DNA of 64,000 nt from a virus. Its lineage: Duplodnaviria; Caudoviricetes. The position numbers were made by a program, and so were the translations under genes. The stretch lies in the IMG/VR virus record IMGVR_UViG_3300038679_000032, positions 516 through 64,515 of that record. One strand, 5' to 3'. Numbering within the stretch: the stretch's first letter is position 1; each line of letters opens with the position of its first letter. The notes under the pieces are model-generated. The model worked only from the letters and a program-made list of their open reading frames with translations, did no database searches and was not told the DNA's origin. Positions 2,774 through 63,128 of this stretch are shown here, in pieces.

Positions 2774-2795
2774 ATTGTCTATACTATAGACTCCT

Positions 2796-3560
2796 TTACG
2801 GAATAGCAACACACAAAGACGGTTGGAATGGAACGCTGACACTATCTTTTTTAGACCTATTTACATCACCCCACATGGGTTGTAGGTTCGACAGGCTCCA
2901 ACACCGCTTAAAATCCAAATCTTCCGGTTTTTCAAAATTGAATGCAGAGATTGGAATTATGTGATCAACATGCCATTCTCCATAATTATCCCAAGACATT
3001 CCATCAATAAACTTCCTCTCAAGAATTACAACAAGGTCGTTTATTCCATACCCAACAAGAGACTCCCACTTCCTGTTCCTCTTTGTTCCGTTTTGAAGGC
3101 TCGCAATAATACCGGACGATATTGCATGAACCAATCTCCCCTTGGGAGTACTGCGCCTCTTGGTGTTCGCACGCCTCATCTGTTCCCTGTATCTATCGGG
3201 ATACTTCCGTCGCCACAGCCTTAGCGCATCTCGCATTTGTGGTACATTTCTGCGTTGCCATTTTAATTTACTTGCCCGTACCTTGTCGGGATTTTCATTT
3301 TTCCACTTTTCAACAGAACGAATAACCGTCTGTGGATGCTTTTTTCTCCATTCTTTTTGTTGTTCAAGAATCTTATCCCTGTTGGATAAATACAGTCCCT
3401 TCCTCCTCTTATTGATTTCATCTCTGTGTAAAGCATAATACTCCATACTTTTCTTCGCACTACACAATCTACATTGTGAATAACGACCATCCTTTATTTT
3501 TTTGCAATGCCAAAAATCATCTAACGGTTTGACTTCCCCACACACAGTACATCGCTTCAT
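2796..3560 (-). mobile_element. Free-standing HNH homing endonuclease 1
   Basis: N-terminal CxxC zinc finger (MKRCTVCGEVK...CRLC) and C-terminal WHVDHIIP...NLQPMW...N; starts immediately after the terL stop. Confidence 0.88.
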
Positions 3561-3561
3561 T

Positions 3562-5178
3562 TTACATAAGCTCCATGAACATGAATTCGGGCGTCCCATA
3601 TAGACACATCATAAAATAATTAAAGGCATGTCTAAAGTGATCCTCTCCAAGGCGAAGGTATGTGTACCTCTGGGAGCCAGTCTCCTCATCTACTTCAAGC
3701 TTTTTCGCCACATTGTGCATATGCAAGGCAAACAATCTTACCAAATCAGATTCCCTTGGTAAAATGATATTTTGTGTTGTAATAACATTATGAGAGGCAT
3801 CTAATGTCTCTGTTCTATTTCCTTGCACCAATAATTGGGGGTCGTTCCACTTTAACGATCCCTTCTGGTATTCATTGTAAAAATTGAGATACACCCTTCC
3901 TCTGAATCGGTCTGCAAAGTTTCGGGCAAACTTTGTATTCGGGAGAGCGTCCACGACGCACCGGACCACCTTAAACCTGTTCATCAGGGCGTCCAACTCA
4001 AACCATCCGCTTTCATCCTTCTCGTTTTTGGAATCGTTCCCCTTATGAACCCCCAAATAAATGACTTCCCCTGTGCGGTTCTCGCACGGCTTCCCGATGA
4101 CGACATGGAGCGTGTTTCCCTGATCGACCCCCATGTAGGTTCCGACTTCGCTTTCACTTGCTATCCCGGAGGTTCCGCAACAGTCCAAGACCTCCTGCAT
4201 GGAAAGCCTGTTTTGGGCTTCGACATAGGCAATTCCGATTTTGAGGTTGTAGAAATCAGTCAGGTTGGTCGTTGTCCGGTAGGTCTGTAAGATAAGGTCC
4301 GGGGCGGTCATCTTGGTTTGAGAATACAACTGAGAATACTGCCTTCCCCTTCGTTCCGTGATTTGTGGCCTTTTGGCAACCCATTCCCCGATAGAAGGGT
4401 CCAACTCGGAATGGCACTTCTCGCATGCTCTTATGACCTTCCCTTTCACCGTCAATAGACAGTCGGGAAAAGTATCCACAAGGTTCGTATAGTGATTGCA
4501 CTTTGGACACTTGAGGAGCCAATACCTCATGTCCGTAGTCTGCCAGAGCTTGTCTATCCCGTAGTCCGGCATGGTCGGGTTCGATAAGAAAAGCATCTCC
4601 CCCGCCTCAGAATGAGCCATTCTTTCCATAATCATATCGACTGATTTAGGGGGAGCTTCATCCAATTCATCAAACACTACAAGGTCCATGGGCGCACTTT
4701 TCATGCCTACGCGCGATTTCATACCCCTTAAATATAGGGCAGTATTGAGGATTTTCTTTACATTCGCCGCATCGGTTTCCTTTATCCATGTCCCTATTGT
4801 TTCCGGGTTGTCCTCAATTAAAGAAGTTATCCTGATTTTACTGAGGTCGGTGACATCGCTTCTTGATGGGAAATAATACCCAATACCGCGGTAATTGCTT
4901 CCCCCGTATTTGGCGGTATGGAACACCCTTAAAATAGCCTTAGAGGTAAGCCCCAACTGGGTTCCTTTTATCTCCACCTGAAACGGATGGGTGTCCTTGT
5001 ATGGCTCGATGAGGTATTCATGCTTCTTGAACGAAAACTCCCTTCCATCGAGGACGATCTGGTTCTTGACGGCCCAGGTTCCCAAATCGGGGCTTTTGTC
5101 CTCCTCCTCCTGAAAAGAGGTTTCAAGAGATTGCATGAGGTTCGCAAACAGTTCAGACTTCTTTGGAGAATAGGTCAT
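3562..5178 (-). CDS. terL: Terminase large subunit, GpA-like
   Basis: KGTQLGLT (Walker A-like), VFDELDE (Walker B), SNPT, CPKC zinc motif, nuclease motifs GVDQG / VVDALP / GEDH. Confidence 0.92.
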   Translation of the reverse strand: MTYSPKKSELFANLMQSLETSFQEEEDKSPDLGTWAVKNQIVLDGREFSFKKHEYLIEPYKDTHPFQVEIKGTQLGLTSKAILRVFHTAKYGGSNYRGIGYYFPSRSDVTDLSKIRITSLIEDNPETIGTWIKETDAANVKKILNTALYLRGMKSRVGMKSAPMDLVVFDELDEAPPKSVDMIMERMAHSEAGEMLFLSNPTMPDYGIDKLWQTTDMRYWLLKCPKCNHYTNLVDTFPDCLLTVKGKVIRACEKCHSELDPSIGEWVAKRPQITERRGRQYSQLYSQTKMTAPDLILQTYRTTTNLTDFYNLKIGIAYVEAQNRLSMQEVLDCCGTSGIASESEVGTYMGVDQGNTLHVVIGKPCENRTGEVIYLGVHKGNDSKNEKDESGWFELDALMNRFKVVRCVVDALPNTKFARNFADRFRGRVYLNFYNEYQKGSLKWNDPQLLVQGNRTETLDASHNVITTQNIILPRESDLVRLFALHMHNVAKKLEVDEETGSQRYTYLRLGEDHFRHAFNYFMMCLYGTPEFMFMELM

Positions 5179-5777
5179 GGATTAACCCTTACCAACCCTC
5201 TAAGGCTTCTTCGGGCCTTCAATCGTTTAATCACTTCATCCTTTATTAACGGGTCCACTTCTCTTAAAACATTGATGATTTCTTCCTGAAACTCTGCAAC
5301 CATCGTTACATTGTAAATAGTCTCGTAGATTTTCACCTGTAGCTCGATCTGTTTCCTCACTTCCGCAGATATAGCTATGATGTTGGATTGGATTTTCAAA
5401 ATTCCAGCTACATTGTCCCCGGCGAGCTTCTTGATCTTTTCGAGCAATACAGGGTCGTCGGGGTTCTTTTCAAGCCGCTTTTCAAGCTTTTCTCTCTTTA
5501 AGAGAAGTTCATCCTCTCTTTCAATAAGTCTGTTGCACCGTTTCATCTCATGGATGATCCGGTCATTCATCGTTTTTAACTGGTGCACGGTGTCTATGTT
5601 GTGCCTTGATAGTTCGCTTCTTGACACATCAGGGACCATAGAAAGCCTTTTTTCAACCCGCTTCCTCATGGTATCCACCGCCGCCCAAGTGCAGTTGAAG
5701 TGCTTCGCTATCTGGGCGGTGCTAACCCCGGCCTTATACATACGAAGCATTTCTTCTTCATCAATCTTGTCGCCCAT
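5175..5777 (-). CDS. Putative terminase small subunit
   Basis: N-terminal HTH (GVSTAQIAKHFNCTWAAV) plus coiled coil; overlaps the terL start. Confidence 0.65.
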   Translation of the reverse strand: MGDKIDEEEMLRMYKAGVSTAQIAKHFNCTWAAVDTMRKRVEKRLSMVPDVSRSELSRHNIDTVHQLKTMNDRIIHEMKRCNRLIEREDELLLKREKLEKRLEKNPDDPVLLEKIKKLAGDNVAGILKIQSNIIAISAEVRKQIELQVKIYETIYNVTMVAEFQEEIINVLREVDPLIKDEVIKRLKARRSLRGLVRVNP

Positions 5778-5950
5778 TAAATCTCCTTTTTTATCTTAAT
5801 CTTTGATAGATATGCTGCGGTAGGGGGGAAATGCCCCACTTCCAATAAATTTTCTTTCATAAAATTAAGCACATCTTTTACTGATACATTGGTATCTTTG
5901 TATTCCAAAATTGTAAGATTCGCCGTAACCGTGTATTTAGTTTTTTTCAT
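5777..5950 (-). CDS. Hypothetical protein (57 aa)
   Basis: SD AAGGAGGGG; TAATG overlap with the next gene. Confidence 0.55.
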   Translation of the reverse strand: MKKTKYTVTANLTILEYKDTNVSVKDVLNFMKENLLEVGHFPPTAAYLSKIKIKKEI

Positions 5951-5979
5951 TCACCCCTCCTTGTCTATACCATAGACTG

Positions 5980-6120
5980 TTATTTCCTCTTTTTCTTTTT
6001 GGACTTCCCCGCCTCTTTCAGAGCTATCGCCACGGCTTGCTTCTGCGGGCGGCCTGATTTAACGAGTTCGGAAATGTTACTACTTACAACTTTTTTGCTT
6101 TTTCCCTTTTTAAGCGGCAT
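5980..6120 (-). CDS. Small basic protein (46 aa, [10 protein letters not shown]...[13 protein letters not shown])
   Basis: Hand translation; GGAGG SD; a type of small basic ORF I recall near phage terminases. Confidence 0.65.
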
Positions 6121-7943: not shown

Positions 7944-8261
7944 CTATTCCTTTAGTGCGGCTTTGGCTCTATCAAACTCTTTGGTATATTTTCTTCCCTG
8001 ATAGCCAGTCGGAATATGCGATTGGTATAATGTCCAAACGCATTGATATTCAGGATCACCATGCACAGCCTCAAGTGCCTCAATTAAGTTTTCCAACACC
8101 CACTCCAGTTCTTTAATACGGGCTTCCTTGTCTCTAAGGATGGCAAGAAAATAGGTCTTTACGGCTTCATAGCATTCAACAGTTCCCGCTTGATCTGATA
8201 ATGGAGAATGTCGATACGCCTGCATAAGATTATAAAATTCCTCACACTCAATCTCACTCAT
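7944..8261 (-). CDS. Hypothetical protein with short coiled coil
   Basis: GGGGG SD preceded by a palindrome copy. Confidence 0.6.
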   Translation of the reverse strand: MSEIECEEFYNLMQAYRHSPLSDQAGTVECYEAVKTYFLAILRDKEARIKELEWVLENLIEALEAVHGDPEYQCVWTLYQSHIPTGYQGRKYTKEFDRAKAALKE

Positions 8262-8414
8262 AATCCCCCCAGTCTATACCATAGACTCCGTGCGAATATC
8301 GCACTATTTCAAATCAGAACACTTCGGCCAGTTCTTATCCCTAAACTCCTTGTCCGGCATCGGCTACGGGTCAAGGATTCGATCATCTGATCCGGCCTCC
8401 CTTATCTCTACAAC

Positions 8415-9184: not shown

Positions 9185-9538
9185 TCAATCCTCTTCGCCA
9201 TCTTTCTCCCCCTTCCAATGCACAACAGATACAGGAGAGCCATCCAATATGCTTGCCGCATACACAGATACCCATTGCCCACAAGGAATTATTAGTGTCG
9301 GTATGGACACAGATTCCTTTTTTTGCAGTAACATCAACACCCCATCCTTAACCGCCACCTCATCAGCAAAAGCATAAATCTCCCCAATCGAACAAAGCTT
9401 CTTCCCAACCCTTATACACCAATAATAGTGTCCGTACTTTTCTTCGTTCATTTTCCCCTCCTTCATCGGCAATCCGTTTCCGTCCAAATGCCCCTTTCCC
9501 ACCGTCCAGAACCCCCTTTTACCCCTTTTCATCGGCAA
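9185..9538 (-). CDS. Hypothetical protein (start uncertain)
   Basis: First ORF behind the promoter at 9580-9609. Confidence 0.55.
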   Translation of the reverse strand: MPMKRGKRGFWTVGKGHLDGNGLPMKEGKMNEEKYGHYYWCIRVGKKLCSIGEIYAFADEVAVKDGVLMLLQKKESVSIPTLIIPCGQWVSVYAASILDGSPVSVVHWKGEKDGEED

Positions 9539-9579
9539 CCTTTACCGTTCAACCCCCATTCCCTCACCTCTTTGACCCC

Positions 9580-9609
9580 ATACTATCATGGTTTACTACC
9601 CCCTGTCAA
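9580..9609 (-). promoter_or_regulatory. sigma70-like promoter for the leftward operon
   Basis: TTGACA-18 bp-TAGTAT with an extended-10 TG. Confidence 0.6.
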
Positions 9610-10470
9610 CCAAAAATGTCCAAAATATACAAAACCGCCCCAAATAAAATCATCAATAATATCCAACCTAATTTAATTAGGTCCCACGGGTCCAATACAA
9701 TCTCCCCCCATACATCATCACAAAACCATCCATGTAAACCCATCCCAGTCTATCCCTGTAGATACCAATTCCTAATTGTGAAATGTATGACCACACTAAA
9801 AGGGGCTGTAGACTCTTGATGTTGATTCCCCCGTTCCCCCCTCGTCTCGACTACCGGGGGTAGTAGGGGGGCCTACCGGATCGAATCACCATCGAACAGA
9901 ATCGGGACCAGGAACCCCCTGGGGTTGGCTGGGGGCCGGAGAGGGGGGGATACTGAGGTCATGCGGGGGGTGGTCTCCAGCCTGTCTCCTGCCCTGCTCC
10001 TCTCCTGGTTATGGTCTGTCCTTTCTCTTGTTCTATTGTGTTTTAATGTCTACTGTTTCAATAGAATTACTGGAGATGGGGGTGATATGGGGGGAGGGTG
10101 ATGCTGTGTTGTTTCTTGTTATAGTCTGAGGGCCGGTTTATATGGGGTTTTATCTGTTGGGGGCGCGGTTTTTCCTGTGATAATTCCAGATTGATATATG
10201 GGGTTGATTGTATTGATGATTGTGTTCTTCTGGGGGCGGTTTGACATAAATGGAATTGATAGTGGGCCGTGAGAATTACGGATTGGCTTGTTTGGTGGTC
10301 TGTTGATATGCTGTGGATTAAATAAATGATGATGAATTGATTCTTATAGTTGGGGGCGTTTTCGGGGTTGTGGATAGAATTGAGGTATGGAGATTGCTCT
10401 ATTCTTTGTAAAAACTGTATCAAAAAGTTGGACAACTAACACCCCGGAGAGACGGGGAGAGGGGGGAGGA
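9610..10470. other. Non-coding divergent control region (candidate genome end or origin)
   Basis: No credible ORFs; C/A-rich left arm, G/T-rich right arm; divergent transcription on both sides. Confidence 0.55.
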
Positions 10471-13016: not shown

Positions 13017-13051
13017 AAACAGTCTACGCCGTAGACGGAAAAGGAGGGGTT

Positions 13052-15576: not shown

Positions 15577-15822
15577 TTATAGTTTAATCTTTTTACCATT
15601 ACGGATGAAATAGCAGTAAGAGCCTTCGCAGATACAGGAATCTATCCCGTGATACTGGAACTTCTTCTCGAAAGCGGCCTTTTCTGACTCGGAAAGGGGA
15701 ACGGGTAAATCCTTTATCGGGGCCGGGAAGATTAAAGACAGTAAAAGCAGATAAGTAATCAGGCCGACCGAAACCACAATGGCTATTTTTGCCTTGACAG
15801 ACAGTCTATACTGTAGACTCAT
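15577..15822 (-). CDS. Membrane-anchored hypothetical protein
   Basis: N-terminal TM segment; GGAGG SD. Confidence 0.6.
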   Translation of the reverse strand: MSLQYRLSVKAKIAIVVSVGLITYLLLLSLIFPAPIKDLPVPLSESEKAAFEKKFQYHGIDSCICEGSYCYFIRNGKKIKL

Positions 15823-15831: not shown

Positions 15832-16053
15832 CTACATAAACGGTCCGCCGGGATATAATGCGTGAACTCCTGATTTCAGATGGACGCATATCCGGCCTGT
15901 CCCATTGCAATTCCGGCACTCTCTTGGATATTCACCGCCCCACTCCAATCCACCACAACAACCACAATCACGCTCGACCCATCCGGGGTAATCATCTATC
16001 GGATTGTCTGGAACATGCACGACCTTTGAATTTTTACTGTCCCAGTATGCCAT
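15832..16053 (-). CDS. DnaJ-type zinc-finger small protein
   Basis: CGCCGG...CRNCNGTG. Confidence 0.6.
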   Translation of the reverse strand: MAYWDSKNSKVVHVPDNPIDDYPGWVERDCGCCGGLEWGGEYPRECRNCNGTGRICVHLKSGVHALYPGGPFM

Positions 16054-16219: not shown

Positions 16220-16939
16220 TTATAAGGGTAATACTTCTTGAGCCAATCTATCCACCGCTATTTTGCAATACTTTTCTTCAATCTCTATTCCAATGGCCTT
16301 GCGGCCTAACTGCTTGGCGGCGACCAAAGTAGTGCCGGAACCCATGAAGGGGTCAAGGATGGTGCCTGCTGGTGGACAGGAAACACGAATCAATTTATTG
16401 CAAATCCCGACCGGTTTTTCTGCCGGATGTGTTCTCCCTGAACCGGCGATGGTTGTAAAAACCTTGCTCATTAAGCGGTAATCTTCGCACAGGAAATAGC
16501 TTCCCGGTTTCCTCATGCTCGCAATGTATTCGAGATCATGAAGAAAGTGATTATTTTTAGCGGGGATTGGGTTTGTTTTATGCATCACAAGGAGGTCATA
16601 AAGAAGCCCTTCCGATTCGGCATGATTAAGATATTTCGCTATAAGGGTCTTGTTGCAAAAAAAGTATGCCGTCTTAAATTTATTCCGAAGACCGTTCAAT
16701 ATTTCAAGCGGATCGAACTTGTCACAGGAGAGCTTTTTTAAGTCATTAAGATATTCTCGCGGCTCTCTTGTTAAGCCATGCCACTTTACGCCATAGAAAC
16801 CACCACCACACGCCTCAAAATTATACGGCGGGTCAGTCAGCACCAAGTCCACAGGCTCAAGGTGCGGCAGGATGTCACGACAATCGCCGTGGTAAATCGT
16901 TATCCCGGCATGGTCGTAATAAGGCTCTGGCAAACTCAT
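16220..16939 (-). CDS. DNA amino-methyltransferase (N6A/N4C, beta class)
   Basis: DPPY catalytic motif precedes DPFMGSGTT SAM-binding motif. Confidence 0.92.
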   Translation of the reverse strand: MSLPEPYYDHAGITIYHGDCRDILPHLEPVDLVLTDPPYNFEACGGGFYGVKWHGLTREPREYLNDLKKLSCDKFDPLEILNGLRNKFKTAYFFCNKTLIAKYLNHAESEGLLYDLLVMHKTNPIPAKNNHFLHDLEYIASMRKPGSYFLCEDYRLMSKVFTTIAGSGRTHPAEKPVGICNKLIRVSCPPAGTILDPFMGSGTTLVAAKQLGRKAIGIEIEEKYCKIAVDRLAQEVLPL

Positions 16940-16948: not shown

Positions 16949-17164
16949 TCATAGTATTTCGCTACCCTTTTTAATCCGCTTTCTGTCTTCTATTCTACGG
17001 CCACGATCATCATTCAACTCTTTACTTTTCTCTGTAAGGGCGGCAAGATGGTCGGTGTAGAGGACATAATCGCCATCATTGTCTTCCAACATGATACCCG
17101 ATGGATACCCCCTATCTTGTGGGTGGTATTCTACAGATGGGTCGTATCTTTTAATCTTTTCCAT
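16949..17164 (-). CDS. Hypothetical protein (Ead-like YVLYTDH motif)
   Basis: AGGAGG SD preceded by a palindrome copy. Confidence 0.6.
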   Translation of the reverse strand: MEKIKRYDPSVEYHPQDRGYPSGIMLEDNDGDYVLYTDHLAALTEKSKELNDDRGRRIEDRKRIKKGSEIL

Positions 17165-17193
17165 TTACCCCTCCTAACAGTCTACAGTATAGA

Positions 17194-17415
17194 CTATTCA
17201 GTTATTTCACTTTTGGGCCTAAATTCCTGTTCAATGGAATAGTTGTTCCTACTCCCATCGAAAAGCCCCATGACCACCCTCGGCTCCACCCCATGCTTCT
17301 TTGCGAGTCGGCGGCAGAAAACAAGCCATGCCTGTCTCTCTGTGTGAGCATAGACATAGGCTCGTTCCATCTCGCATTGATACATGAAGATGCCCTTCCA
17401 GAGTTTCTTTTCCAT
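17194..17415 (-). CDS. Hypothetical protein
   Basis: Coupled to the primase stop. Confidence 0.6.
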   Translation of the reverse strand: MEKKLWKGIFMYQCEMERAYVYAHTERQAWLVFCRRLAKKHGVEPRVVMGLFDGSRNNYSIEQEFRPKSEITE

Positions 17416-19094
17416 CACATCCTCCAAAAGCCCCAATCAATCAATGTGTTAAACATACTCCCATTATTCCTTATTTCGTATTTGAGCCTTTTGCCGTCCA
17501 TTTTGCCTATTTTGGGATGCTTACACTTGATTATCTCCGCAACCCCCACCACATCTTCGTGACTTCCTTCTATTTTCTTCAACGAAATGGCTAATCGGGG
17601 CTTCTCCAAAATCAAATCCCCGGATCGTGGCAGTCTCGCCCCTACCTTATGCTGGACGCAGACAATCGCAATTCCTTTTTGTAGTTTGTCATGGATTTGC
17701 CTCATGTATTCGGCGGCCCTCGTGTAATCCCCCTCTGGAAACTCCAGGTAGTCTATGATATTCAGTCCGTCCGGGTCCATAGCATTAGTCAGATTGTTCT
17801 TTAAGGCAATGTATTTCAAGGATTCATCCGGCATCCAAACCTCTTTGTCTATCCCGAACCACTTGAACCGCCCCTTAATCTCCCTTACCTTCATTTCACT
17901 TGAGGCATACCGGATATTGAACCGATTCCTGTTGTCTACAAGTGTAGAGAGGGCGAACAGCGACTTCCCGGAATTGAATTCCCCAGAACAGAGGATAATG
18001 TTGCCTTGGTAAATATCGACCAGTTCATGCAATCCAAAGGGGAGCTTCAAAACAGACGGCTCACCCTCTTCCTCTTTGAAATCAAGGTACTCAATGTCCG
18101 TGTCAATTCTGCGATACCACCCATCCTTATCCCCGCTTTTTTCGATTGTTAAGCCTTTTCGCCTACTTATCGCTTTTCGTGCCGCAACCATGTCTCTCGA
18201 TGTCACAAAACCGAGTTCCTTGTAACAACTTGTCACACTGAAGTTGCCCTCTGTCACACTTATGAAGGCATCGACCTCGGCTTGGATGTTTCTTTCCTTC
18301 CTTTCTGCACGGTCATAGGCACTCTTGATCTTGGCATTGATCCATGCTTCGTCCTGCTCCCCCCAAGATGATACAATCGCTCGTAATAATTGGCGAATAT
18401 ACTCCGGTGAGTTTGCGGTTTTTACCAGGCAATTTGCCACATGAAAGAGGTTTTCATCCCTACATCCCTCAGCCCAGATGTCACGTTTTGTCTCATTTGT
18501 CACGCATTGTCCATCAACTTTTTGTGACCCCCTATATATATTGTTTGTTTTTAACATAATCTTTAAGTAAGAGATAAAAGATATAGGGACAGGAGAAAGT
18601 GCAGTTTTGTGGATTTCCAATCCTTGCTTCCACGAATAAGGAATGCCGGTTCCGTTAAGTGACGGAGGGGCTACGATGTAGCCAGTCTCCCCCCGATAGT
18701 CCATTGCTATTTGTTCGCATGTACCAATTGATGTGTCGTCCGCGCCCTCGTATAGAAAATATTGATGATCCCCCCCGGACGGGGAAGAGGATGTCGGGGT
18801 GATGATGTTGTCTGGGATTAGTTCAAGTGCCTTCTCTGGATTATAGGTCGGTTTGTATTTGTCGTGGTCCACCACAAACAGGTTACTGATGCGACCCGTG
18901 ATGATGCCTATATTGTAGTTCGGGTTCTTCCCCCACCATTCCCTGATTTGTTCTACGGAGGCCCGTTCCGTCCGGTAAGGGATGACCTCGAAGCCCTTTG
19001 GGGGGAACTTTTGGCCCGGGGCCAACGGTATCACGGAAAAGGACATCTTCTCCCGATACCAGATTGCGGCCTTCAGAAGTTTGTTTTCAGGCAT
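17415..19094 (-). CDS. Bifunctional Prim-Pol primase / PriCT / P-loop helicase
   Basis: NIGIITG..LFVVDHD, HQYF, GYIVAPPS; RDENLF; Walker A GEFNSGKS; Walker B IIDY. Confidence 0.9.
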   Translation of the reverse strand: MPENKLLKAAIWYREKMSFSVIPLAPGQKFPPKGFEVIPYRTERASVEQIREWWGKNPNYNIGIITGRISNLFVVDHDKYKPTYNPEKALELIPDNIITPTSSSPSGGDHQYFLYEGADDTSIGTCEQIAMDYRGETGYIVAPPSLNGTGIPYSWKQGLEIHKTALSPVPISFISYLKIMLKTNNIYRGSQKVDGQCVTNETKRDIWAEGCRDENLFHVANCLVKTANSPEYIRQLLRAIVSSWGEQDEAWINAKIKSAYDRAERKERNIQAEVDAFISVTEGNFSVTSCYKELGFVTSRDMVAARKAISRRKGLTIEKSGDKDGWYRRIDTDIEYLDFKEEEGEPSVLKLPFGLHELVDIYQGNIILCSGEFNSGKSLFALSTLVDNRNRFNIRYASSEMKVREIKGRFKWFGIDKEVWMPDESLKYIALKNNLTNAMDPDGLNIIDYLEFPEGDYTRAAEYMRQIHDKLQKGIAIVCVQHKVGARLPRSGDLILEKPRLAISLKKIEGSHEDVVGVAEIIKCKHPKIGKMDGKRLKYEIRNNGSMFNTLIDWGFWRM

Positions 19095-19098: not shown

Positions 19099-19293
19099 TT
19101 ATCTCAGGAGCAAGTCCTTCGGGTCGATCCGCAAGGTGCGTGCAATCAATGTAAGCGTCTTCAGGGTGGTGGATTGGGATAACAGCATCTTTGAGTAGGT
19201 GCTGTCCGTCAACCTGAACCGCCTTGAAAACGCCGACATGGATAGATTCAGCTTCTTGCGCTCGTTTTCCAGTTTTCGTATATTGAGTCTCAT
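19099..19293 (-). CDS. XRE/Cro-type HTH regulator
   Basis: 64 aa, LSMSAFSRRFRLTDSTYSKM...TLKTLTLIARTL; sits at a divergent promoter. Confidence 0.8.
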   Translation of the reverse strand: MRLNIRKLENERKKLNLSMSAFSRRFRLTDSTYSKMLLSQSTTLKTLTLIARTLRIDPKDLLLR

Positions 19294-19355
19294 GGGGTGG
19301 GATAATAAATCCTTTCCGGGGAAAAGTCAAGAAATGTTTTTTCTGAAAATAATTC

Positions 19356-19384
19356 TTGACAAACGGGGAAGCATCATATAGACT
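19356..19384 (+). promoter_or_regulatory. sigma70-like promoter for the rightward block
   Basis: TTGACA-17 bp-TAGACT. Confidence 0.7.
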
Positions 19385-19602
19385 GCACCCAAACTCACGA
19401 CACGCCCTCTCGACGAACATCAGGCCGCGAGCTTCCGAGGAGGGGCCAGAGCCAGGGGAAGAGGGGAAACGGGCCACGGGTAAAGTCATCGCCCAATGTG
19501 GTTAAGGTGGGTGCCTCGGATGCGGCGAGCGGGGGAAGTGGTTCTTTGGACTTGGGTGGGGGTTCCAGGGATGCCCCCACCCGCTACCAAACGGAGGTAA
19601 GT

Positions 19603-20777: not shown

Positions 20778-21441
20778 AACACGGCCAGATGGGTACCACC
20801 CATATTGTAAGATATGCAGAAACACACTACGCAAGTCAGGAGATAAGGAAAAACTTTTCAGACAAGGGGTTCGGTATAGAGAAAAGCATAAAGATGATTT
20901 ACGAAAGAAGAAACAGATATTTTATCAAAAAAATAAAAAGCAAATTAATGAGAAAAATAAAACATACTATCAACAACACAAAGAAGAGATTCGGATAAAG
21001 GCAATGGCTTATTACCAAAACAACAAGGATGCTACCAAAGAGAGATCGTATGCTTGGCTTAAAAACAAACTCTCAAAAGATCCTGTATTTAGAATGATAC
21101 ACCGATTCCGTTTCTTAATAGGGTATGCGTTAAGGGGTAAAAAAAACAGAAGGCGGTGGGAATCGTTGGTTGGATACACGCCAGAACAACTTAAAAATCA
21201 TATTGAAAGCCTATTTGTTGATGGAATGTCTTGGGACAATTATGGTCGTGGAGGGTGGCACATAGACCACATAATCCCAATCTCAGCATTCAATTTTGAG
21301 AAGCCGGAGGATTTGGATTTTAAGCGGTGTTGGAGTCTGTCGAACCTACAACCCATGTGGGAACAAGAAAATTTCAGGAAAAACAGGTTTCTTAAAAAAT
21401 CCTTTCAACCATCGCTTCTACTGGGGGAATCATGCAAATAA
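20647..21441 (+). mobile_element. Free-standing HNH homing endonuclease 2 (start uncertain)
   Basis: CVNC...CKIC finger; WHIDHIIP...NLQPMW. Confidence 0.88.
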
Positions 21442-22435: not shown

Positions 22436-22569
22436 TTATGCTTATCAAACTCGTAAAATGGTTCATTAAAAAGTATCTTCCGGGGTATTCGCTCCACAGG
22501 AATCCGGGGAAAAGGAAACAGTCTATAGTATAGACAAAAGGCGCAAAGACGATCTTTGCGACAATTCAA

Positions 22570-22651
22570 GGGCGGGCGCGAAAGCGTGAGGGGAGCGAGT
22601 AAAAGCCGGAAATTATAGCAGTAGCTCTAACTTACCAATCCGGCCCCGCCC
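22570..22651 (+). ncRNA. Candidate structured RNA A
   Basis: GGGCGGG/CCCGCCC closing stem, GCGC-GAAA-GCGT tetraloop, CCGGA/TCCGG stem. Confidence 0.4.
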
Positions 22652-22667
22652 CCGATCTTTTGAAAAA

Positions 22668-36642: not shown

Positions 36643-36643
36643 T

Positions 36644-43208: not shown

Positions 43209-43275
43209 CGTCGTCCTATAAAAATGGGGGCCGTAGGAATAAGACCCCCATTCTTCATTCCGGGGCCATCACCCC

Positions 43276-43620
43276 TTAACTCGTCACTTGCTGAACAATC
43301 GTCACCGTGCCTTCCAGTAGCCGTGTCACGGTCCCGCCAAGCTCCGTCAATTCGCAATCCCAATACCCGGACCAGTAAGTGAATGTTTCCGTGACAGCGG
43401 CGGCCATTGTCAAGGTGATTACCGAGGTGGTCGTGTCTATCGCGGCGGTGAAATCTATCGAGGAAGTGGAATCCTTCGTTTCCCTCACGGAAGCGGCACA
43501 GGAAGCCCCGGTAAGGTCATAGAGTTCACCATCCTCATCCACGACGGTGAACTCTATCCCAAAATCCGCCCCTTCTTCGATCCGGTAATCCTTTTTCAAA
43601 TTAAGTGTGGTTGCAGGCAT
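43276..43620 (-). CDS. Small Ig-like tail protein (BppU-N-like)
   Basis: IEEGADF...YDLTG...W..Y.D.EL...LLEG.V. Confidence 0.6.
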   Translation of the reverse strand: MPATTLNLKKDYRIEEGADFGIEFTVVDEDGELYDLTGASCAASVRETKDSTSSIDFTAAIDTTTSVITLTMAAAVTETFTYWSGYWDCELTELGGTVTRLLEGTVTIVQQVTS

Positions 43621-43629
43621 TCTATCCTC

Positions 43630-44712: not shown

Positions 44713-47700
44713 TTTTCGCCTCCTTGTTTTGCTCGTTTATTTCCAAGCAGCGTGTCATTGTAGAAATTAACCGCTTCAACCAACTGTTCCTGTTCATCCT
44801 TTGACAGGGTATTGATAAAACTTACCTTAGTCCTGTCATCCATCCCGTAAAGGGGGTGCATGGTCTTTAATGCGCTTCCAATCCCGGCTTTGACTTGTTC
44901 CGCCGTCCTTCCCTGCTGTGCGGATAAAGCCGCATACTCAGTTAGATACTTTGAGAACGCTTTTTTGTCGTCATACTTTACGGCCAGTTTCATGTTGTAG
45001 AGAGTGTCCCCGGTTGAAGTGAGCCAGAACCCTTCCGAAGTCCTGCCGATCTTTTTGAGGAATTGTGTCTTGGCGTCATAGACATTCCGATATGCCGCTT
45101 CACCGGGGTCTATACTATAGACAAGTGCTTCCTTTATGGACCGGCCATAACCCTTTGATGGTTTTTCTGCCATCATCTTAAACTCGTTTTCAAGGCCAAA
45201 AGACCGTGCAAGATGGAGCCACCTGTCTCTTACGGTTCCCATCTTAAAGACATCGGGGAAGGTGGACCTACGGGATAAGGTTTCAAATAAGAGTTTCGTG
45301 AACGGAACCCCGCCGCCTACAATCTTGTTCATCGGGGCCTGAATGGTTTTCTCCCCCTGATCCATCAATGCCTCTTTTGCCGTCTTTTTCCCAGTCATCC
45401 ATTCGTCAACATATCTCGGAACATAATCAAGGCCGAACCAGGAAATGAAGTCATCAAGCGTTCCCATTCTGTTGAAGTATTCAATCTCTCCCTTATCGTT
45501 TTTCCCGAAAATGATATGAGGGGTGTTCTTGATTTCTTCCGGCAGCACCTTTTCTTCTTCCGGGAACATGGTGTGGTTATACATCTGCAATGCCCCGGTA
45601 AATGCCGCTGTCTTAATCGCCAACCGCCCTACCTTCAATGCCGTAAGCGTAGATGTCGCCCCCAACTTCTTGCCAACCTTGATAGCCAAATCCCCGTTGT
45701 TTGCCGCATTCTGATAAAGCTGTATGTATCTCTTGAAGTTGACTTCCTGCCACGACCAGAACGGAATCCATCTTTCCCGAATGGTCTGGCCGGCAACGGT
45801 CACTCGGTCATAAGCTCCAAGCAAATCATTGGAAAGCCAGTATGCCTTATCATTCATGTCCTTCAATGAATCAATCATCTCCGGCTTGGACGCCCCGTAG
45901 TTCTTCGGAACCCCGCCACCCTTCAAAAGCTGATCCTTGTAGTCAAGGAAGTTGGCATACCGAAGGATGGATTCCCTGAAGTCGGTTGTCATTCTGGCCG
46001 TTTTCCAATACTTCTCCCATACATTCAACCCCTTGTTTTCGTGGAGCCGGGAGAACATCCATGTCTGTTTCAGGGCGTTCAACTCTTGCGCCTGAAGGGT
46101 TGAAGCCGTCCCGCCTCTTTCAAACCATGCGGCCATATCGGGGGACATTGGTTTCTTCCCAAAGAACACATCGCCCAATTCCCGAACCGCTTGCGGAACC
46201 TTCTGGAACGAAGAAGCGTTCCCAAGGAAAGCCGCTTCCGCATCGCCGGTGAGGTTCCGGGCGTTATACTTAAAAGCCCTTCGGGGGGAGATAAGTTGCC
46301 ACTCTTTCCACAACCCCATCGCCTTGATTTCGGCTTTTGCGGCCATTCCTTCCGGGCGTTCCCGAACAATGTTGTCAAGCGTTTTGGCGACTTCTTCCCG
46401 AACAACCCATTCTTTTCTTTTCCCACCTAACGCAAGGACTTCCTTAAACGCACCTTCGAGTCCGGCTATATCTTCAAGGCCGCCGGACATAATCTGTGCG
46501 GCAACCTTCTCATCTACAGAAAGGACCGGATGAAACACATTCCCCTCTTTTGGTTGCCATGCCGTGTATCCTTCGGGAATCGCATCATGCCAGTTTTCAA
46601 GCCCCTGTTCCTTAGCTGTGGCCCGGACCTTACTCGCTATATCTTCCCCGTTTTTAATCTTTGTAAGCGTCTTTGCGGTTTCCGAATCATGGAGCATTTG
46701 AGCCATGATGTTGTGTTCCGCTTCGAGGTAATCGGTATTGTAAAGCCCCCCGTATCCGGTTCTCTGCCGGGTGTATCCCTTCTTTGTCGGCGGCCTCAAT
46801 CTCTTTCCAGTTCCGAAGATTCCCTGTTCCGTGACATAATCCAACACTTGATGCCGGAAATAGTTATCCTTGAACATATCTTCGACATTCGGCTTGTAGG
46901 GGCTTAATGCTTCAATGTATTCAGCCTTGACCTGTTCCCACATCGAGGCACGCTTATCCAGAGCCTCTTTCAGCTTTGGGGATGTGTCAACAATAGCGTC
47001 GAGCTTGCCCCTTTCGGCCGCAAGGGATTCGGGGGTGAACTTGAACGGCAATTCCTTTTCTTTGTAAAGACCCCGTTCCACATCGGATGCAAGGTCATCC
47101 AGAATCACTTTGCGCCGATACACCTCATAGTCCTTCTTCCCTAACCCGGACAGGGTTTCTCCAATGTTCCTAACGGTCCTATCCGCAACAACTTCCTTTT
47201 GTTTTTCCAATCGTTTCAAGTCAAAAATCAGTTGAGCGTTTTCCTGTTTATTGGCAAGATGCTCAAAATCACGGGAAAACTTATGACCCACTTTCGTTGC
47301 CGCTTCCTGTATCGAGGCCCAAATGCCTTCCGGCTTTACACCCCTTGCGGATTCAAACAGGTTTTCCGTTTCCTTTGACTCAAACGAATACTTTGGACCA
47401 GGTTCCTTTTTCCCTATATCCAGACCAATCATTCCCTTCTGGGCTTCCTTGGTCTGTTCCTTTGCAAGCTGTTCAAGGCCGGATTGTTTTGCCTTTTCCA
47501 AATTCCATTTCACGCTTGCATCGCTTAGTGTTCCTTGCTCTATGTTGAATTTAATTTGGTCTGGTGTAAGACCAAAATTATTATTGATTAAATCTATTGC
47601 TTCTTTTTTCGTTCTCAGGTGTCCGGTTGGCAGAGCCAATCCACTCACATTTTCCCTAATCACCCATCCGCCCTTTTCGTCTTTAACGACATCAAATGTT

Positions 47701-48485
47701 CTGTTTTTGAAAGCGGGTGCGGTATATTCCCCTGTCCCAACTAATCCGGGTGCTTCTGCTACCTTACCCAGTTCCGGGGCTTCTACTTGTTTTGCCGTTT
47801 CAACAACAGGGGCAACTGTTTTGGGGGCGGTCTGTGCCGCTTGCGGGATGGTTTCGGTAGATACCTTCGCTTCCGGGGTGATGCTTTCAAGCACTCCGGT
47901 TGCCTGTCTTTTTTCAACCGCCTTCGCAAGTGGCTTCGCTTCTACGGCCTTCACAATGTCTTTCCCGGCAGACTTCGCCAAAGTAGGAAGTTCCGAAGCA
48001 CCCCCGGTGAACCATCCAAGCGATTCTCTCGCCCCGGCAAGCATCTTCCCGACAGGGCCAGCGGCCATCTTCGCACCCGCCACCCCACCCGCCGCCAAAG
48101 CAAGTTCTGGAGACTGAAGAAGTCCGGGATCGGCAGAAGGGACATCTCTTACATATCTCACCGTCCCATCTTCAGAAAATCTCACTTCCGGCTCAGGAGA
48201 CCCTTGCGGCCCAACATGCCCCATTGTGGCAATAGAACCGAGTTCTTCCCCGTATGGCTTCAGGAACCCCTCCACAACACCGGGGGCGGGTTCTTCCTTA
48301 TATTTCCCGGCATCAACCTCCATCCGACGGACAACCTTGAACCTGTCCCCGGAAGATAAGGATTTCCATTCAGGCATCTTGCCGAGGTCTGACAGATAGG
48401 ACTGGAACACCGTGGTCTTTTCCGGTTCCCCAAGACCCTTCCATTCCTCAGACTTCGTTATTTCATCCCATGCCGGTAAGGACAT
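44709..48485 (-). CDS. Large internal virion / ejection-type protein
   Basis: 1258 aa, helical; last of three consecutive genes after the nozzle. Confidence 0.65.
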   Translation of the reverse strand: MSLPAWDEITKSEEWKGLGEPEKTTVFQSYLSDLGKMPEWKSLSSGDRFKVVRRMEVDAGKYKEEPAPGVVEGFLKPYGEELGSIATMGHVGPQGSPEPEVRFSEDGTVRYVRDVPSADPGLLQSPELALAAGGVAGAKMAAGPVGKMLAGARESLGWFTGGASELPTLAKSAGKDIVKAVEAKPLAKAVEKRQATGVLESITPEAKVSTETIPQAAQTAPKTVAPVVETAKQVEAPELGKVAEAPGLVGTGEYTAPAFKNRTFDVVKDEKGGWVIRENVSGLALPTGHLRTKKEAIDLINNNFGLTPDQIKFNIEQGTLSDASVKWNLEKAKQSGLEQLAKEQTKEAQKGMIGLDIGKKEPGPKYSFESKETENLFESARGVKPEGIWASIQEAATKVGHKFSRDFEHLANKQENAQLIFDLKRLEKQKEVVADRTVRNIGETLSGLGKKDYEVYRRKVILDDLASDVERGLYKEKELPFKFTPESLAAERGKLDAIVDTSPKLKEALDKRASMWEQVKAEYIEALSPYKPNVEDMFKDNYFRHQVLDYVTEQGIFGTGKRLRPPTKKGYTRQRTGYGGLYNTDYLEAEHNIMAQMLHDSETAKTLTKIKNGEDIASKVRATAKEQGLENWHDAIPEGYTAWQPKEGNVFHPVLSVDEKVAAQIMSGGLEDIAGLEGAFKEVLALGGKRKEWVVREEVAKTLDNIVRERPEGMAAKAEIKAMGLWKEWQLISPRRAFKYNARNLTGDAEAAFLGNASSFQKVPQAVRELGDVFFGKKPMSPDMAAWFERGGTASTLQAQELNALKQTWMFSRLHENKGLNVWEKYWKTARMTTDFRESILRYANFLDYKDQLLKGGGVPKNYGASKPEMIDSLKDMNDKAYWLSNDLLGAYDRVTVAGQTIRERWIPFWSWQEVNFKRYIQLYQNAANNGDLAIKVGKKLGATSTLTALKVGRLAIKTAAFTGALQMYNHTMFPEEEKVLPEEIKNTPHIIFGKNDKGEIEYFNRMGTLDDFISWFGLDYVPRYVDEWMTGKKTAKEALMDQGEKTIQAPMNKIVGGGVPFTKLLFETLSRRSTFPDVFKMGTVRDRWLHLARSFGLENEFKMMAEKPSKGYGRSIKEALVYSIDPGEAAYRNVYDAKTQFLKKIGRTSEGFWLTSTGDTLYNMKLAVKYDDKKAFSKYLTEYAALSAQQGRTAEQVKAGIGSALKTMHPLYGMDDRTKVSFINTLSKDEQEQLVEAVNFYNDTLLGNKRAKQGGEK

Positions 48486-59126: not shown

Positions 59127-59196
59127 AATGGCTCCGGGGGTAAGGGGCGGGAGAGTCCCAGTCTATACTGTAGACTCCCCTCGCCCGTGTTAAAAA

Positions 59197-60599: not shown

Positions 60600-61541
60600 C
60601 TACTTACGGCAGTACAGGTATCCAAGAGCCTGGCCCTTGACCACCTTGTAGCCATAAACCATCAACCCTCTTACAATCGTGTCAAAAGACTCGGTAGAAC
60701 GGAGGGATTCGGTTTTCGTCAACTGAGCCGCAAAAGAAATCGCGTCACGGGTTCCAAACAGAGCATAGTAAGACTTGAACCCACTCGCATCAGTCGCCGC
60801 CGCAACGGTATTGACCTGATTCGACCCGTACACCACGAACCGATCAATACCACCCACAAGACCCGTCCTCACAATAGACTTCGGGTCCCCCATCATGGAC
60901 GCATCCTTGATGTCGCTCTTTTTAATCATCCCGCTTGCCCACGCGGGAAGAACGAGCCAACGGCCTTCCTCCGGGACATCGTTCTCATCCAGCACCGTTC
61001 CGCAATCAACGATGTAATCGAGAACATTGTCCTTCGTCAACTGAATCGGGGAACCGGACGCGCCAAGATTGAACGCGGCGGAAATCTTACCCGCAGTAGC
61101 CCCGTAGTTGTAGGAATTTGCATCCGCAGCCACCCCCGCCAGAACATCAGCGTCAATGGCAATCTTGAGCTGCTGGGCCGCGTCCCCAGTCCACTTGTTC
61201 AGAAGGTCGATGTCGGACTGAACCTTGTCCACATCGTCTAACAGGATGTTCCAGCCACGCCCCTTGTCGATGAGCATTTCCACATCGGCAGACTCAGGAC
61301 GCTGTTTCGGGAGAACCATACCCTTGTTGTAAGCAAAGGTCGTGATGTCAGGAATCGTGCGGATATAAATTTTATCCCCGCCGCCCTTAATTTCTCCCTC
61401 GTGGTCGGTATTACACAGAGCCGTGGCAATGGCCTTAGTGTAATACTTCTTGAGAATCTTCGAGGACCAGATTTCAGGCAAAAACTTACTGGTCCCCGCA
61501 CTTGAATAATCGGGATGCCCTGCGGCACGTGCTACACTCAT
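60600..61541 (-). CDS. Major capsid protein (HK97 fold)
   Basis: FLPEIWS, EGEI..GGD, LDENDVPEEGRW, GLMVYGYKV. Confidence 0.92.
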   Translation of the reverse strand: MSVARAAGHPDYSSAGTSKFLPEIWSSKILKKYYTKAIATALCNTDHEGEIKGGGDKIYIRTIPDITTFAYNKGMVLPKQRPESADVEMLIDKGRGWNILLDDVDKVQSDIDLLNKWTGDAAQQLKIAIDADVLAGVAADANSYNYGATAGKISAAFNLGASGSPIQLTKDNVLDYIVDCGTVLDENDVPEEGRWLVLPAWASGMIKKSDIKDASMMGDPKSIVRTGLVGGIDRFVVYGSNQVNTVAAATDASGFKSYYALFGTRDAISFAAQLTKTESLRSTESFDTIVRGLMVYGYKVVKGQALGYLYCRK

Positions 61542-61574: not shown

Positions 61575-62576
61575 CTATACTAAAGTTCCTTTCAGAATTG
61601 CCGCGTCGAAAAGAGCTTCAACTTGAGCTTCCGTCTTTCCGCCCCAATCGTTTGGATTGAAACGGTATCGCGGGTTCATAAACTTTATGTATTGAGTTTT
61701 CGTGAGCCCTGTCTGGCTCGCCTTGTTAGGGGGGGTTGGACCCCCAGAACGAGGTGGAGCCGTGAACTTGTTAAGTTTGTCCGGTTGAGGTTCTGTGTTC
61801 CCATCCGGTTCCGGTGGCGTTTTGGACGCCTTGAAGTCGAGGAAGAACTGAGAAAGGGTTTTCGCGTCGAGGTCGCGTGCGGCGAATCTCAAAAGGTCTA
61901 ACTTGGTCGCCTTGGTATAAGGCACGGGAGCATTCAGCCATTCCAGAAATTCCGGGTCCTGGTCAACTTGTCTCCAATCGGCGGCACCGTATTCACGCAT
62001 CGCAAGGTCGAAACGGTCCTGTTTGCTCAACTGGATGTCGTCTTTGACGCTTTTGATGTCTGCGGAAATTCCGGTTTCCAATTCCTTTCGGAGTTTTGCG
62101 ATTTCGTCCCGATGTTCCTCCTTCATCTTTTTGATGAGCTTGGCGACTTCGGGATTCACTTCCGCTACCGAATCCATCTCCGGGTCCGATTCCTCTTTGG
62201 GGGGCTTTTTGACAGTCTCCTCCAATTCTGAAATCCTTCGTGTGAGTGATTCGGCATAATCCTTCCACTGACCGACTTCGGCACTCAATCTTGGAACTTC
62301 GGCTTTATACTTCCCGTCAAGAGTCTGATACTTCTGTTTCCAGTCTATATCGCTCTTGACCTCTTCCTTTGGCGGCGTTACGACTTCTTTTACTTCCGCA
62401 ACGGGTTCCTCTTTCTGTGGAGTTTCGTCGGCCACCACTTCCGGTGTTTCCGGTTCTGGCGTTTCGGCTACTTCCTCTGGTTTATCAGTCTCCTTTTCTT
62501 CGGGCTGATAAACCTCTTTCCACAGCTGTTCCGCCTTCTCTTCCGCCTTCTCCAACTTCTTTTCAATGTAACTCAT
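61575..62576 (-). CDS. Scaffolding protein
   Basis: Acidic Pro/Glu-rich, KYKAEVPRL, coiled coil, directly upstream of the capsid gene. Confidence 0.75.
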   Translation of the reverse strand: MSYIEKKLEKAEEKAEQLWKEVYQPEEKETDKPEEVAETPEPETPEVVADETPQKEEPVAEVKEVVTPPKEEVKSDIDWKQKYQTLDGKYKAEVPRLSAEVGQWKDYAESLTRRISELEETVKKPPKEESDPEMDSVAEVNPEVAKLIKKMKEEHRDEIAKLRKELETGISADIKSVKDDIQLSKQDRFDLAMREYGAADWRQVDQDPEFLEWLNAPVPYTKATKLDLLRFAARDLDAKTLSQFFLDFKASKTPPEPDGNTEPQPDKLNKFTAPPRSGGPTPPNKASQTGLTKTQYIKFMNPRYRFNPNDWGGKTEAQVEALFDAAILKGTLV

Positions 62577-62865
62577 AGTATCCTCCTTGTGGGCCATAAA
62601 GGTCTCCACGGTTACGGGGGCGGGTTATCCGTCTCCCCTTGGTGTCTTGTGGCCGGAACCTCAACCGGCCCGCTTTGTTTCCCGACCCCACGTTTCTTAT
62701 GTTTCGATTCGGCCCCGGTTCGCTCCGGTTAGGAGAGGTGATATGCGTCGGGCAAAGAAAAAGGGGCATCGAAGGTTCGGCTCCGAACAGCCCCTTAATT
62801 CTTTCTTTCGTCCCCTTTGAGTTGGCCGACCCGCAGGAGAACCCGATTATGTCAAAGAACAACCA

Positions 62866-63087
62866 CTAACACACCGTCCACGGTTGCCAATATGGATAAT
62901 GTGGGTACGGTGGATAATATGGTGTCGGATAAGGATATGGGATATATTCCTTTTTTGTTTGTTTTTCAAACTCATCTGCAATTTTCTTGAACGCATTCAA
63001 CTCTTCTTTCGCACCTAACTTCCCCCGAAGTTCCGCAACTTCCCTTTCCAAATCCGCTATCCTTTTTTCCGTTTCTTCCTGTGTCAT
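62866..63087 (-). CDS. Small coiled-coil protein with Tyr/Pro-rich tail
   Basis: GGAGG SD preceded by a palindrome copy. Confidence 0.65.
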   Translation of the reverse strand: MTQEETEKRIADLEREVAELRGKLGAKEELNAFKKIADEFEKQTKKEYIPYPYPTPYYPPYPHYPYWQPWTVC

Positions 63088-63128
63088 AAATATCCTCCCC
63101 CCTCAAAGAACAGTCTATACTATAGACT

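Follow-up and report, generated by a model that had tools for sequence, protein, structure and literature searches.

Dispersed perfect dyad repeats have already been described in a few actinobacteriophage clusters, where neither a binder nor a function has been assigned to them. The Cluster O mycobacteriophages (Corndog and its relatives) carry 34 copies of the 17-bp repeat TGTTCGG-NNN-CCGAACA, together with three one-mismatch copies; about 40% of the repeats are intergenic, 30% 5′-proximal, and 30% internal to genes, with no promoter association and no integrase, and a dimeric DNA-binding protein with a role other than initiation was predicted by the authors (PMC4351075). In Microbacterium phages of Cluster EG, 8–10 copies of a perfect 18-bp inverted repeat, GATCAACC-NN-GGTTGATC, lie 14–22 bp upstream of starts (PMC7302621). 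The stoperators of the Cluster A phages (L5, Bxb1) are asymmetric 13-bp sites oriented with transcription and bound by a monomeric two-domain repressor; these phages are temperate, carry an integrase or parABS, and have one stoperator overlapping the early lytic promoter (PMC6550527, PMC9283540). Dispersed repressor sites number 18–30 per genome in L5 and phiC31 (PMC4557955). Here, we describe the palindrome GTCTA-N5-TAGAC, of which 16 perfect copies were found in a window of 64,000 nucleotides (nt), the whole stretch of DNA that was analyzed, from an uncultivated siphovirus-like phage (bases 516–64515 of the 64,515-bp IMG/VR record IMGVR_UViG_3300038679_000032, rated 100% complete). We read the 16 copies of (A)GTCTA-YRNYR-TAGAC(T) as double-stranded DNA sites of one homodimer encoded by the phage lineage, and hold this with moderate confidence as far as the protein-site part is concerned.

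The 16 copies agreed in coordinates and sequence with those listed in an initial annotation of the window, and the first 515 bases of the record, outside the window, contained no further copy. That annotation had put the chance expectation at about 0.06 copies, and the enrichment was upheld by further nulls, with 0.00 copies expected from dinucleotide shuffles, 0.05 from a third-order Markov null, and 0.26 (at most 3) from a codon-aware null in which synonymous codons were shuffled within genes. Chance and codon artefact were ruled out by the Markov and codon-aware nulls. The motif was all-or-none: besides the perfect copies, there were two one-mismatch copies (0.6 under the null) and 16 two-mismatch copies (13 under the null), isolated half-sites were not enriched (70 versus about 82 expected), and arm spacings other than 5 nt did not occur.

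All ten arm positions were invariant across the 16 copies. Read on the canonical strand, the centres were TACTA (seven copies), TACTG (four), TACCA (three), CGCCG (one), and TAATG (one); because every centre fits YRNYR, 14 of the 15 motif positions are constrained. On one strand, GTCTATACYRTAGAC was matched by 14 of the 16 sites, as the initial annotation had proposed, the exceptions being 13022 (CGCCG) and 38040 (CATTA). Eight copies were perfect 7+1+7 palindromes, 13022 being among them by virtue of two compensated changes. The bases next to the arms were A(-1)/T(+1) in 22 of 32 half-sites, which lengthens the dyad to 17 bp (17-bp duplex form, AGTCTATAGTATAGACT), and no conservation was observed further out. 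The arm centres lie 10 bp apart, i.e., one helical turn, and each centre contains two flexible pyrimidine-purine steps.

This anatomy is of a kind expected of a protein site. One homodimeric, sequence-specific protein, most likely encoded by the phage lineage, would bind all 16 sites with high affinity, each monomer reading one invariant 5-bp arm; the arms would be read in successive major grooves, because their centres are 10 bp apart, and the central pyrimidine-purine steps would give the complex the bendability it needs. Two-fold symmetry of centre and flanks is typical of dimer operators, and invariant arms around a variable centre, the would-be loop, are the reverse of usual RNA-hairpin recognition.

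Although 91% of the window is coding sequence and a mere 10% of positions are intergenic, 8 of the 16 sites were intergenic or not fully coding (P = 8e-5); one more occupied codons 2–6 of a gene and seven were internal to genes. Nine sites fell between about -35 and +20 nt relative to a start codon, and four abutted a Shine-Dalgarno (SD) sequence. The site at 5963–5977 (-), with the sense centre TGGTA, is 2 nt past the stop of a 46-amino-acid (aa) open reading frame (ORF; 5980–6120) and abuts the SD AAGGAGG of a 57-aa gene (5777–5950). The site at 8272–8286 (-), also TGGTA, abuts the SD 10 nt before the ATG of a 105-aa gene (7944–8261). At 13022–13036 (+), the motif with the centre CGCCG starts 5 nt past the stop of a 72-aa gene and abuts the SD, 15 nt before the next ATG. 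At 17180–17194 (-), its first base completes the TAG stop of a 73-aa gene (17194–17415), and it again abuts the SD, 15 nt before the ATG of a 71-aa gene (16949–17164). A different arrangement was seen at 2777–2791 (-), where the sense sequence GTCTATAGTATAGAC is placed between the SD (AAAGGAG, sharing its first G) and the ATG of a 197-aa gene (2180–2773), 3 nt before that ATG and 4 nt past the stop of an HNH gene, with an SD-ATG distance of 17 nt. The site at 63113–63127 (-) comes 1 nt past the TAG stop of a 121-aa gene, adjoins the next SD, and ends 25 nt ahead of the ATG of a 73-aa gene (62866–63087). At 59161–59175 (-), the motif forms the apex of an intergenic hairpin (59145–59186, -30 kcal/mol) between a 274-aa gene and a 220-aa gene resembling an SU10 adaptor, and ends 34 nt before the ATG, while the site at 15804–15818 (-) fills codons 2–6 of the 81-aa gene of a predicted membrane protein (15577–15822), in the order ATG-A-motif.

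The site at 22521–22535 (+) holds the TAG stop of a 31-aa ORF (22438–22533) and is followed by a small hairpin and an ORF-free, structured stretch of about 250 nt, which the initial annotation had called a non-coding RNA array. The tRNA and Rfam searches gave no match to this stretch; no tRNA or Rfam family was found at or near any of the sites. Within 22536–22784 (+), a small hairpin (22542–22560) was observed, along with a cloverleaf-like fold that a perfect 12-bp inverted repeat closes (22668–22679/22757–22768), and the stretch may represent a novel structured RNA.

The seven internal sites were 46–557 nt from the next start, four of them in or beside a glycan-synthesis cassette. The site at 21696–21710 (+) is in frame within a 285-aa gene (21432–22289) and codes for VYSID; that at 27202–27216 (-) is within the lysozyme gene (27152–27523), 50 nt ahead of its stop; and that at 34962–34976 (-) is within a 274-aa gene (34830–35654), 128 nt upstream of the start of a DegT aminotransferase gene. 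Further sites lie within an RMNT_CmcI methyltransferase gene (37618–37632 (-), in 37237–37875) and within a GT2 glycosyltransferase gene (38040–38054 (-), in 37872–38825), the latter with the sense centre TAATG and starting 7 nt after a promoter-like TTGGCA-18-GATAAT. The site at 42041–42055 (-), the only one with a sense-strand centre C among ten sites of the TAGTA/TGGTA type, is near the 3′ end of a repeat-rich 423-aa ORF (41937–43208), 103 nt upstream of a 1018-aa tail-fibre-like gene, and the last, at 45108–45122 (-), is within a 1258-aa structural gene (44709–48485). The sites are placed where coding constraint is lowest, between genes, in first codons, or near the 3′ ends of genes. The nine gene-junction placements of the initial annotation were mostly right, except that 8272 abuts the SD yet is 128 nt past the previous stop; its "typical" order of stop, motif, SD, and ATG described about half of the sites, the seven internal ones being well inside genes.

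To compare these positions with those in related phages, de novo palindrome and k-mer searches were run in all of 13 related contigs recovered by protein-anchored searches (L- and G-numbers below; G000 is the phage studied here). In the closest relative, L145 (TerL 83%, 1.85 kb), GTCTATGGTATAGAC extends from the last base of the TerL stop to 3 nt before an ATG. This motif, with perfect arms, precedes the homologue of the gene at 2180–2773 in the same slot and with the same 3-nt spacing as site 2777; the flanks have diverged, and G000 has the HNH gene inserted upstream. L049 (TerL 74%, 5 kb) carries two copies of a different perfect 16-bp palindrome, CTCTACAC/GTGTAGAG, which has the TCTAC/GTAGA core in common with the G000 motif and an even spacer. 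One copy follows the homologue of ORF 5980–6120, matching site 5963; the other is at the junction of TerL and the 197-aa gene, as site 2777 is, and falls in codons 2–7 because stop and start overlap there. Both comparisons rest on short contigs. At the 5963 junction, L143 has no palindrome, only a stop, 10 nt, and the ATG, and eleven relatives (L051, L060, L141, L143, L144, L146, L148, L149, and G001–G003), with TerL, portal, or capsid identities of roughly 55–86%, contained no comparable repeat family. At the junction of site 59161, a GC-rich hairpin lacking the motif precedes the SD in G001 and L143; the analogous hairpin of G000 carries the motif at its apex.

A scan of IMG/VR with three exact 15-mer centre variants returned single, chance-level matches, with no second copy at any such locus; an excess of the TGGTA variant was traced to a conserved …VYGID… coding stretch of one unrelated contig family. 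The distant relatives L040 and L232 have one copy each inside genes, which we judged a coding coincidence, and TerL scans of metagenome and GTDB genome collections retrieved L049's own contig or nothing. In relatives, one orthologous site is conserved in L145, and two orthologous junctions in L049 hold a variant palindrome; the more distant relatives lack the motif. On these sequence comparisons, the motif is lineage-specific and under purifying selection. Between lineages, a switch of specificity at unchanged positions appears to have taken place, as would be expected if a factor and its sites had coevolved. The operator-like character proposed in the initial annotation was supported by the dimer geometry, the invariant arms, the few near-misses, the conservation in L145, and the switch in L049.

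The same comparisons bear on who encodes the factor. A host-encoded protein recruited by the phage, for example a global regulator or a nucleoid-organising protein, would account for our failure to find a convincing phage-encoded binder in domain screens. Chromosome-organising proteins with dispersed, near-perfect palindromes are familiar in bacteria (matS, NBS, and SBS), and the first half of the motif, GTCTATAC, fits the GntR/HutC core, GTnTAnAC. Nevertheless, we consider a host factor improbable: relatives with 72–80% identical structural proteins lack the motif, in one of them another palindrome occupies these junctions, a finding more easily explained by phage-borne specificity, and host regulons normally consist of degenerate rather than all-or-none sites.

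Gene presence or absence beside the motif was seen at three of the four compared junctions (the HNH gene at 2777, the 57-aa gene at 5963, and the 73-aa gene at 63113), the three genes being absent from the nearest relatives, and the genome encodes HNH and GIY-YIG endonucleases. These observations would suit a site-specific nuclease or recombinase that moves small gene cassettes in and out at gene boundaries, with the palindromes as its targets or the scars it leaves. Against this, the same junctions vary in palindrome-free relatives, domain screens detected no recombinase or transposase, seven sites are within conserved genes, and the Cluster O repeats were reported to be unlinked to insertions or deletions (PMC4351075). 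We regard such a recombination or mobility junction as highly improbable. Equally improbable is a reading of the palindromes as the shared boundary signal of an integron-like gene-cassette exchange in a lytic phage, in which a site-specific nuclease or recombinase would recognise the 15–17-bp dyad at gene junctions and favour the gain, loss, or exchange of small genes there. A mobile repeat of the repetitive extragenic palindrome (REP)/RAYT type or resembling a miniature inverted-repeat transposable element (MITE) was rejected, as no transposase domain was found and the unit is 15–17 bp without conserved flanks.

The positions near starts raised the question of an element acting in RNA, such as a short intercistronic hairpin that remodels ribosome-binding sites, the operator of an RNA-binding repressor, or a processing or stability signal. 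Nine of the sites are close to a start codon and four abut the SD, and the SD-ATG spacing at 2777 would be workable given a hairpin; a distant SD and AUG are bridged by a hairpin in T4 genes 38 and 25. Site 15804 and the second L049 copy are within the first codons (up to codon 7), the two compensatory changes at 13022 preserve perfect pairing, and the motif at 59161 takes the place of the loop in a hairpin kept in relatives. The motif-N3-ATG spacing is also kept in L145, but it is not independent evidence, because G000 and L145 inherited it from their common ancestor. A weak sense-strand bias was observed as well: 11 sites had G and 4 had C as the sense-strand centre base (P = 0.12; 0.20 when corrected for the G-rich sense strand), and in the sense orientation the 5′ flank was A in 14 of 16 sites and the 3′ flank T in 8 of 16 (P = 0.054). 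On the other hand, the stem sequence is invariant in 16 copies, with covariation at one site alone and a variable loop, and the motif RNAs, as 17-mers, fold weakly (-4 to -6 kcal/mol). Five copies are asymmetric (positions 6 and 10), and a G-U wobble would form on the sense strand in just three of them. The flanks are symmetric (A/T), and seven sites are distant from any start codon; such sites deep in genes indicate that a link to translation is not required. An RNA-level role is possible for some copies, and as an account of the whole set we consider it rather unlikely.

Sigma70-like promoters were identified at two divergent control regions, at about 9.6 kb and at 19.30–19.38 kb, defining four transcription units, the largest of which runs leftward from about 9.5 kb, over the record ends, to about 25 kb. 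All four units hold copies of the motif, which bore out the genome-wide dispersal noted initially. We considered whether the motif is itself a promoter or is otherwise recognised by a transcription factor, sigma factor, or RNA polymerase specific to the phage, given that its TATACT/TATAGT core is identical to TATAAT in five of six bases, that the early rightward promoter has TAGACT as its -10 hexamer, and that many genes are preceded by sites. This is very improbable: with perfect two-fold symmetry the element would fire both ways, no conserved -35 or upstream element was present, and three -35-like partners were found among about 30 hexamers, against about three expected. In addition, transcripts would start inside or after the SD in four cases and after the ATG at 15804, and no sigma factor or RNA polymerase gene was detected. 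A sigma70-type promoter in particular was rejected on the missing upstream element and the chance-level -35 pairings. An intrinsic terminator was also rejected, since the stem is AU-rich and weak and the sense strand has no T-run; 13022 alone scored, on the antisense strand. Restriction sites did not explain the motif either, as on inspection AccI-like GTMKAC and SfeI-like CTRYAG sub-sites were present in some copies only.

Taken together, these data demonstrated that the sites are under strong purifying selection, symmetric, promoter-independent, and lineage-specific. What we infer is the binding of a protein to them, its origin in the phage, and the consequence of that binding. The homodimer would exert genome-wide control of elongation or read-through at gene junctions, as a roadblock or as a device for silencing and timing, and promoter initiation would not be the step controlled.

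Several observations weigh against the reading of the motif as a DNA site of a phage-encoded dimer. The roadblock function is purely conjectural. A purely symmetric DNA site does not predict the weak bias relative to transcription described above, in centre (G:C, 11:4) and flanks alike. Nine sites fall within a gene's ribosome-binding window, and the SD at 2777 is 17 nt from the ATG unless a hairpin forms, a hint of some role in RNA. Genes of suitable size yielded neither an integrase or recombinase nor a ParA/B domain, and with no integrase or partition genes found there is no obvious setting for lysogenic silencing. Moreover, among about 70 proteins screened against Pfam or PHROGs, no DNA-binding domain was found other than that of an XRE-family protein, and the promoters of that protein's own gene (19294–19400) contain no full motif.

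This XRE/HTH_3 protein of 64 aa (19099–19293 (-); Pfam HTH_3, E = 2.5e-7; pI 11.5), the only recognisable DNA-binding protein of the set, would be made early, and it had been put forward in the initial annotation as the candidate binder. That proposal found no support, in that no full site is present in the control region of the gene, and the TAGAC "half-site" noted there turned out to be the -10 hexamer of the rightward promoter (TTGACA-17-TAGACT), which stands back to back with a leftward one (TTGACT-17-TATTAT) at 19302–19384. No homologue of the XRE protein was found in a collection of 5.8 billion proteins, and it was absent from the relatives fetched. A link between it and the motif is a guess; the motif geometry fits any helix-turn-helix dimer. 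The small proteins encoded just downstream of intergenic copies showed no known domain.

The genome is circular or circularly permuted, because the record ends overlap by about 134 nt with few mismatches (window 1–1877 and 63748–64000; labelled "linear" in IMG/VR) and are joined by an independent Logan assembly, L147 (SRR12918151, 32 kb), at 99.95–100% identity to G000; an 834-aa portal gene is split across them. No phage in GenBank is closely related. The genome encodes a portal and adaptors of the SU10-like type, a large terminase (TerL) of the lambda-GpA type (3562–5178), the major capsid protein (60600–61541), a primase-polymerase (17415–19094), a DNA methyltransferase (16220–16939), and an HNH/EndoVII protein (2796–3599), in addition to the lysozyme (27152–27523), and the remaining genes were mostly ORFans by Pfam or PHROGs screening. 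The glycan-synthesis cassette (29138–38825 (-)) comprises an NAD-dependent epimerase/dehydratase, the DegT aminotransferase, three or four GT2 glycosyltransferases, and three methyltransferases, including the rhamnosyl O-methyltransferase type, and by analogy with the proposal for Cluster O phages may serve virion glycosylation. In this cassette, a 779-aa ORF (30450–32789 (-)) with an N-terminal GT2 domain contains an in-frame GIY-YIG and NUMOD3 segment (aa ~314–546), and could reflect the fusion of a homing endonuclease to a glycosyltransferase gene or its insertion into one. The tail-fibre-like genes at 38881–44712 (-) form a 58% GC island with many 12/24/36-nt coding repeats (PT-type disordered repeats), which keep long spurious ORFs open on the opposite strand. 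Other over-represented k-mers of G000 (AGCCCAAGTG and others, and CCGA-N11-TCGG) were these coding repeats, unrelated to the GTCTA motif. The divergent control region at 9533–10470, about 900 nt and largely non-coding, has many short G-rich direct repeats (TGGGGGCGGTTT, three copies; TATATGGGGTT, two copies) and could be an origin or a regulatory region.

A second palindrome, GTGCG-N5-CGCAC, was observed in the window at 1900–1914, 4073–4087, 8290–8304, and 37533–37547, and in the relatives L144 (5933, 14579, and 17053), L149 (860), and L145 (1264). The copy GTGCGAATATCGCAC (8290–8304) is, in the sense direction, 3 nt upstream of the motif at 8272, and another, GTGCGGGTTCCGCAC (37533–37547), is about 70 nt from that at 37618. 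In G000 and L144 alike it occurs between genes upstream of the portal gene, and it may represent a regulatory site or hairpin that is older and shared. Paired GGATA-N5-TATCC palindromes are found in L144 (14597 and 14629) and L149 (4944 and 4963) just ahead of the portal gene, and L051 (3520) has a version spaced by 7 nt downstream of the 121-aa gene; relatives lacking the GTCTA motif thereby seem to have an ordinary operator set of low copy number. After the same 121-aa gene, a conserved non-coding element of about 100 nt (ATTCGGGTTCCCTGAC…GCAGGGACGCAAGAAAGA…) was present in L060 (~6030–6110), L143 (~15895–15975), and L051 (~3540–3620), and is a candidate non-coding RNA in the head module; in G000, the GTCTA motif and the 73-aa gene replace it in this slot. 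In the major capsid region of L149 and L150, a LAGLIDADG-like ORF (L149 9655–10593) was found between flanking ORFs of 130 and 192 aa with split capsid matches, which suggests an insertion of the intron or intein type.

Several known systems share features with the motif described here. The KorB OB operators of the IncP plasmid RK2, about a dozen perfect palindromes on a replicon of about 60 kb, are served by one dimeric protein. As with the sites of ParB, Noc, and MatP, these conserved palindromes are scattered, some at promoters and others far off or inside genes; they belong to plasmid and chromosome systems, however, and no ParB-family, ribbon-helix-helix, or similar protein was detected in the phage. 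The repressor sites of phiC31 are 17-bp conserved inverted repeats. They resemble our sites as a conserved palindromic operator at about 18 dispersed loci (PMC4557955), and differ in that phiC31, a temperate phage, has a defined repressor gene and keeps many of its sites at early promoters, whereas neither a lysogeny module nor a promoter association was found here. The resemblance to stoperators and to start-associated sequences (SAS) claimed in the initial annotation proved to be a loose one. Like stoperators, the sites are dispersed, conserved, and in short intergenic spaces, their specificity varies among related phages, and the action on elongation is the function that we infer here too. 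In contrast, they are 15–17-bp palindromes with at most a weak orientation bias (P = 0.05–0.2), the early divergent promoters lack a full site, and neither an integrase nor a ParA/B gene was found; the stoperator analogy is weak because no integrase was found. The SAS and extended SAS (ESAS) of Cluster K are asymmetric, linked to ribosome-binding sites, and a few bp upstream of starts, whereas the sites here are symmetric, the proximal ones are -19 to +34 nt from the start, and seven are far from starts.

The closest counterparts, which the initial annotation did not name, are the repeats of Clusters EG and O, Cluster O being the nearest published analogue. With the former, the motif shares its occurrence in short intergenic regions, its conservation amid diverging flanks, and the lack of an assigned function, a repressor, or an integrase (PMC7302621); the EG repeats are of a different sequence, gathered at one genome end, and nearly all start-associated, whereas here all modules hold copies and 7 of 16 are internal. 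With Cluster O, the likeness covers a dyad repeat of invariant arms and a variable centre, spread over a siphovirus genome of about 65–70 kb with few near-misses, the mixed site positions, the lack of a promoter tie, an integrase, and an assigned binder or function, and the glycosyl- and methyl-transferase cassettes in both genomes. The sequence is unrelated, the layout is 5-5-5 (or 7-1-7) instead of 7-3-7, there are half as many copies, and the lineage, whose terminase is of the lambda-GpA type and whose portal is SU10-like, is an unrelated one; no switch of palindrome at shared junctions, such as that seen here, has been reported for Cluster O. The recurrence of this anatomy in an unrelated, uncultivated lineage (lambda-type terminase, SU10-type portal) suggests that the organisation or regulation of an entire phage genome through a single protein has arisen repeatedly, by convergence. 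The relatives provide a useful handle, since they have either an identical site, a switched one at the junctions in question, or no site at all; their complete genomes should identify the binder via presence and absence and via recognition residues that covary. Protein-site pairs of this sort would serve as compact, orthogonal parts in gene control, and may explain timing or silencing in phages without classical repressors. The motif belongs with the dispersed dyad-symmetric phage repeats of the Cluster O and EG type, as a descriptive kind rather than a homologous family, and would work like a genome-wide operator set outside the stoperator family.

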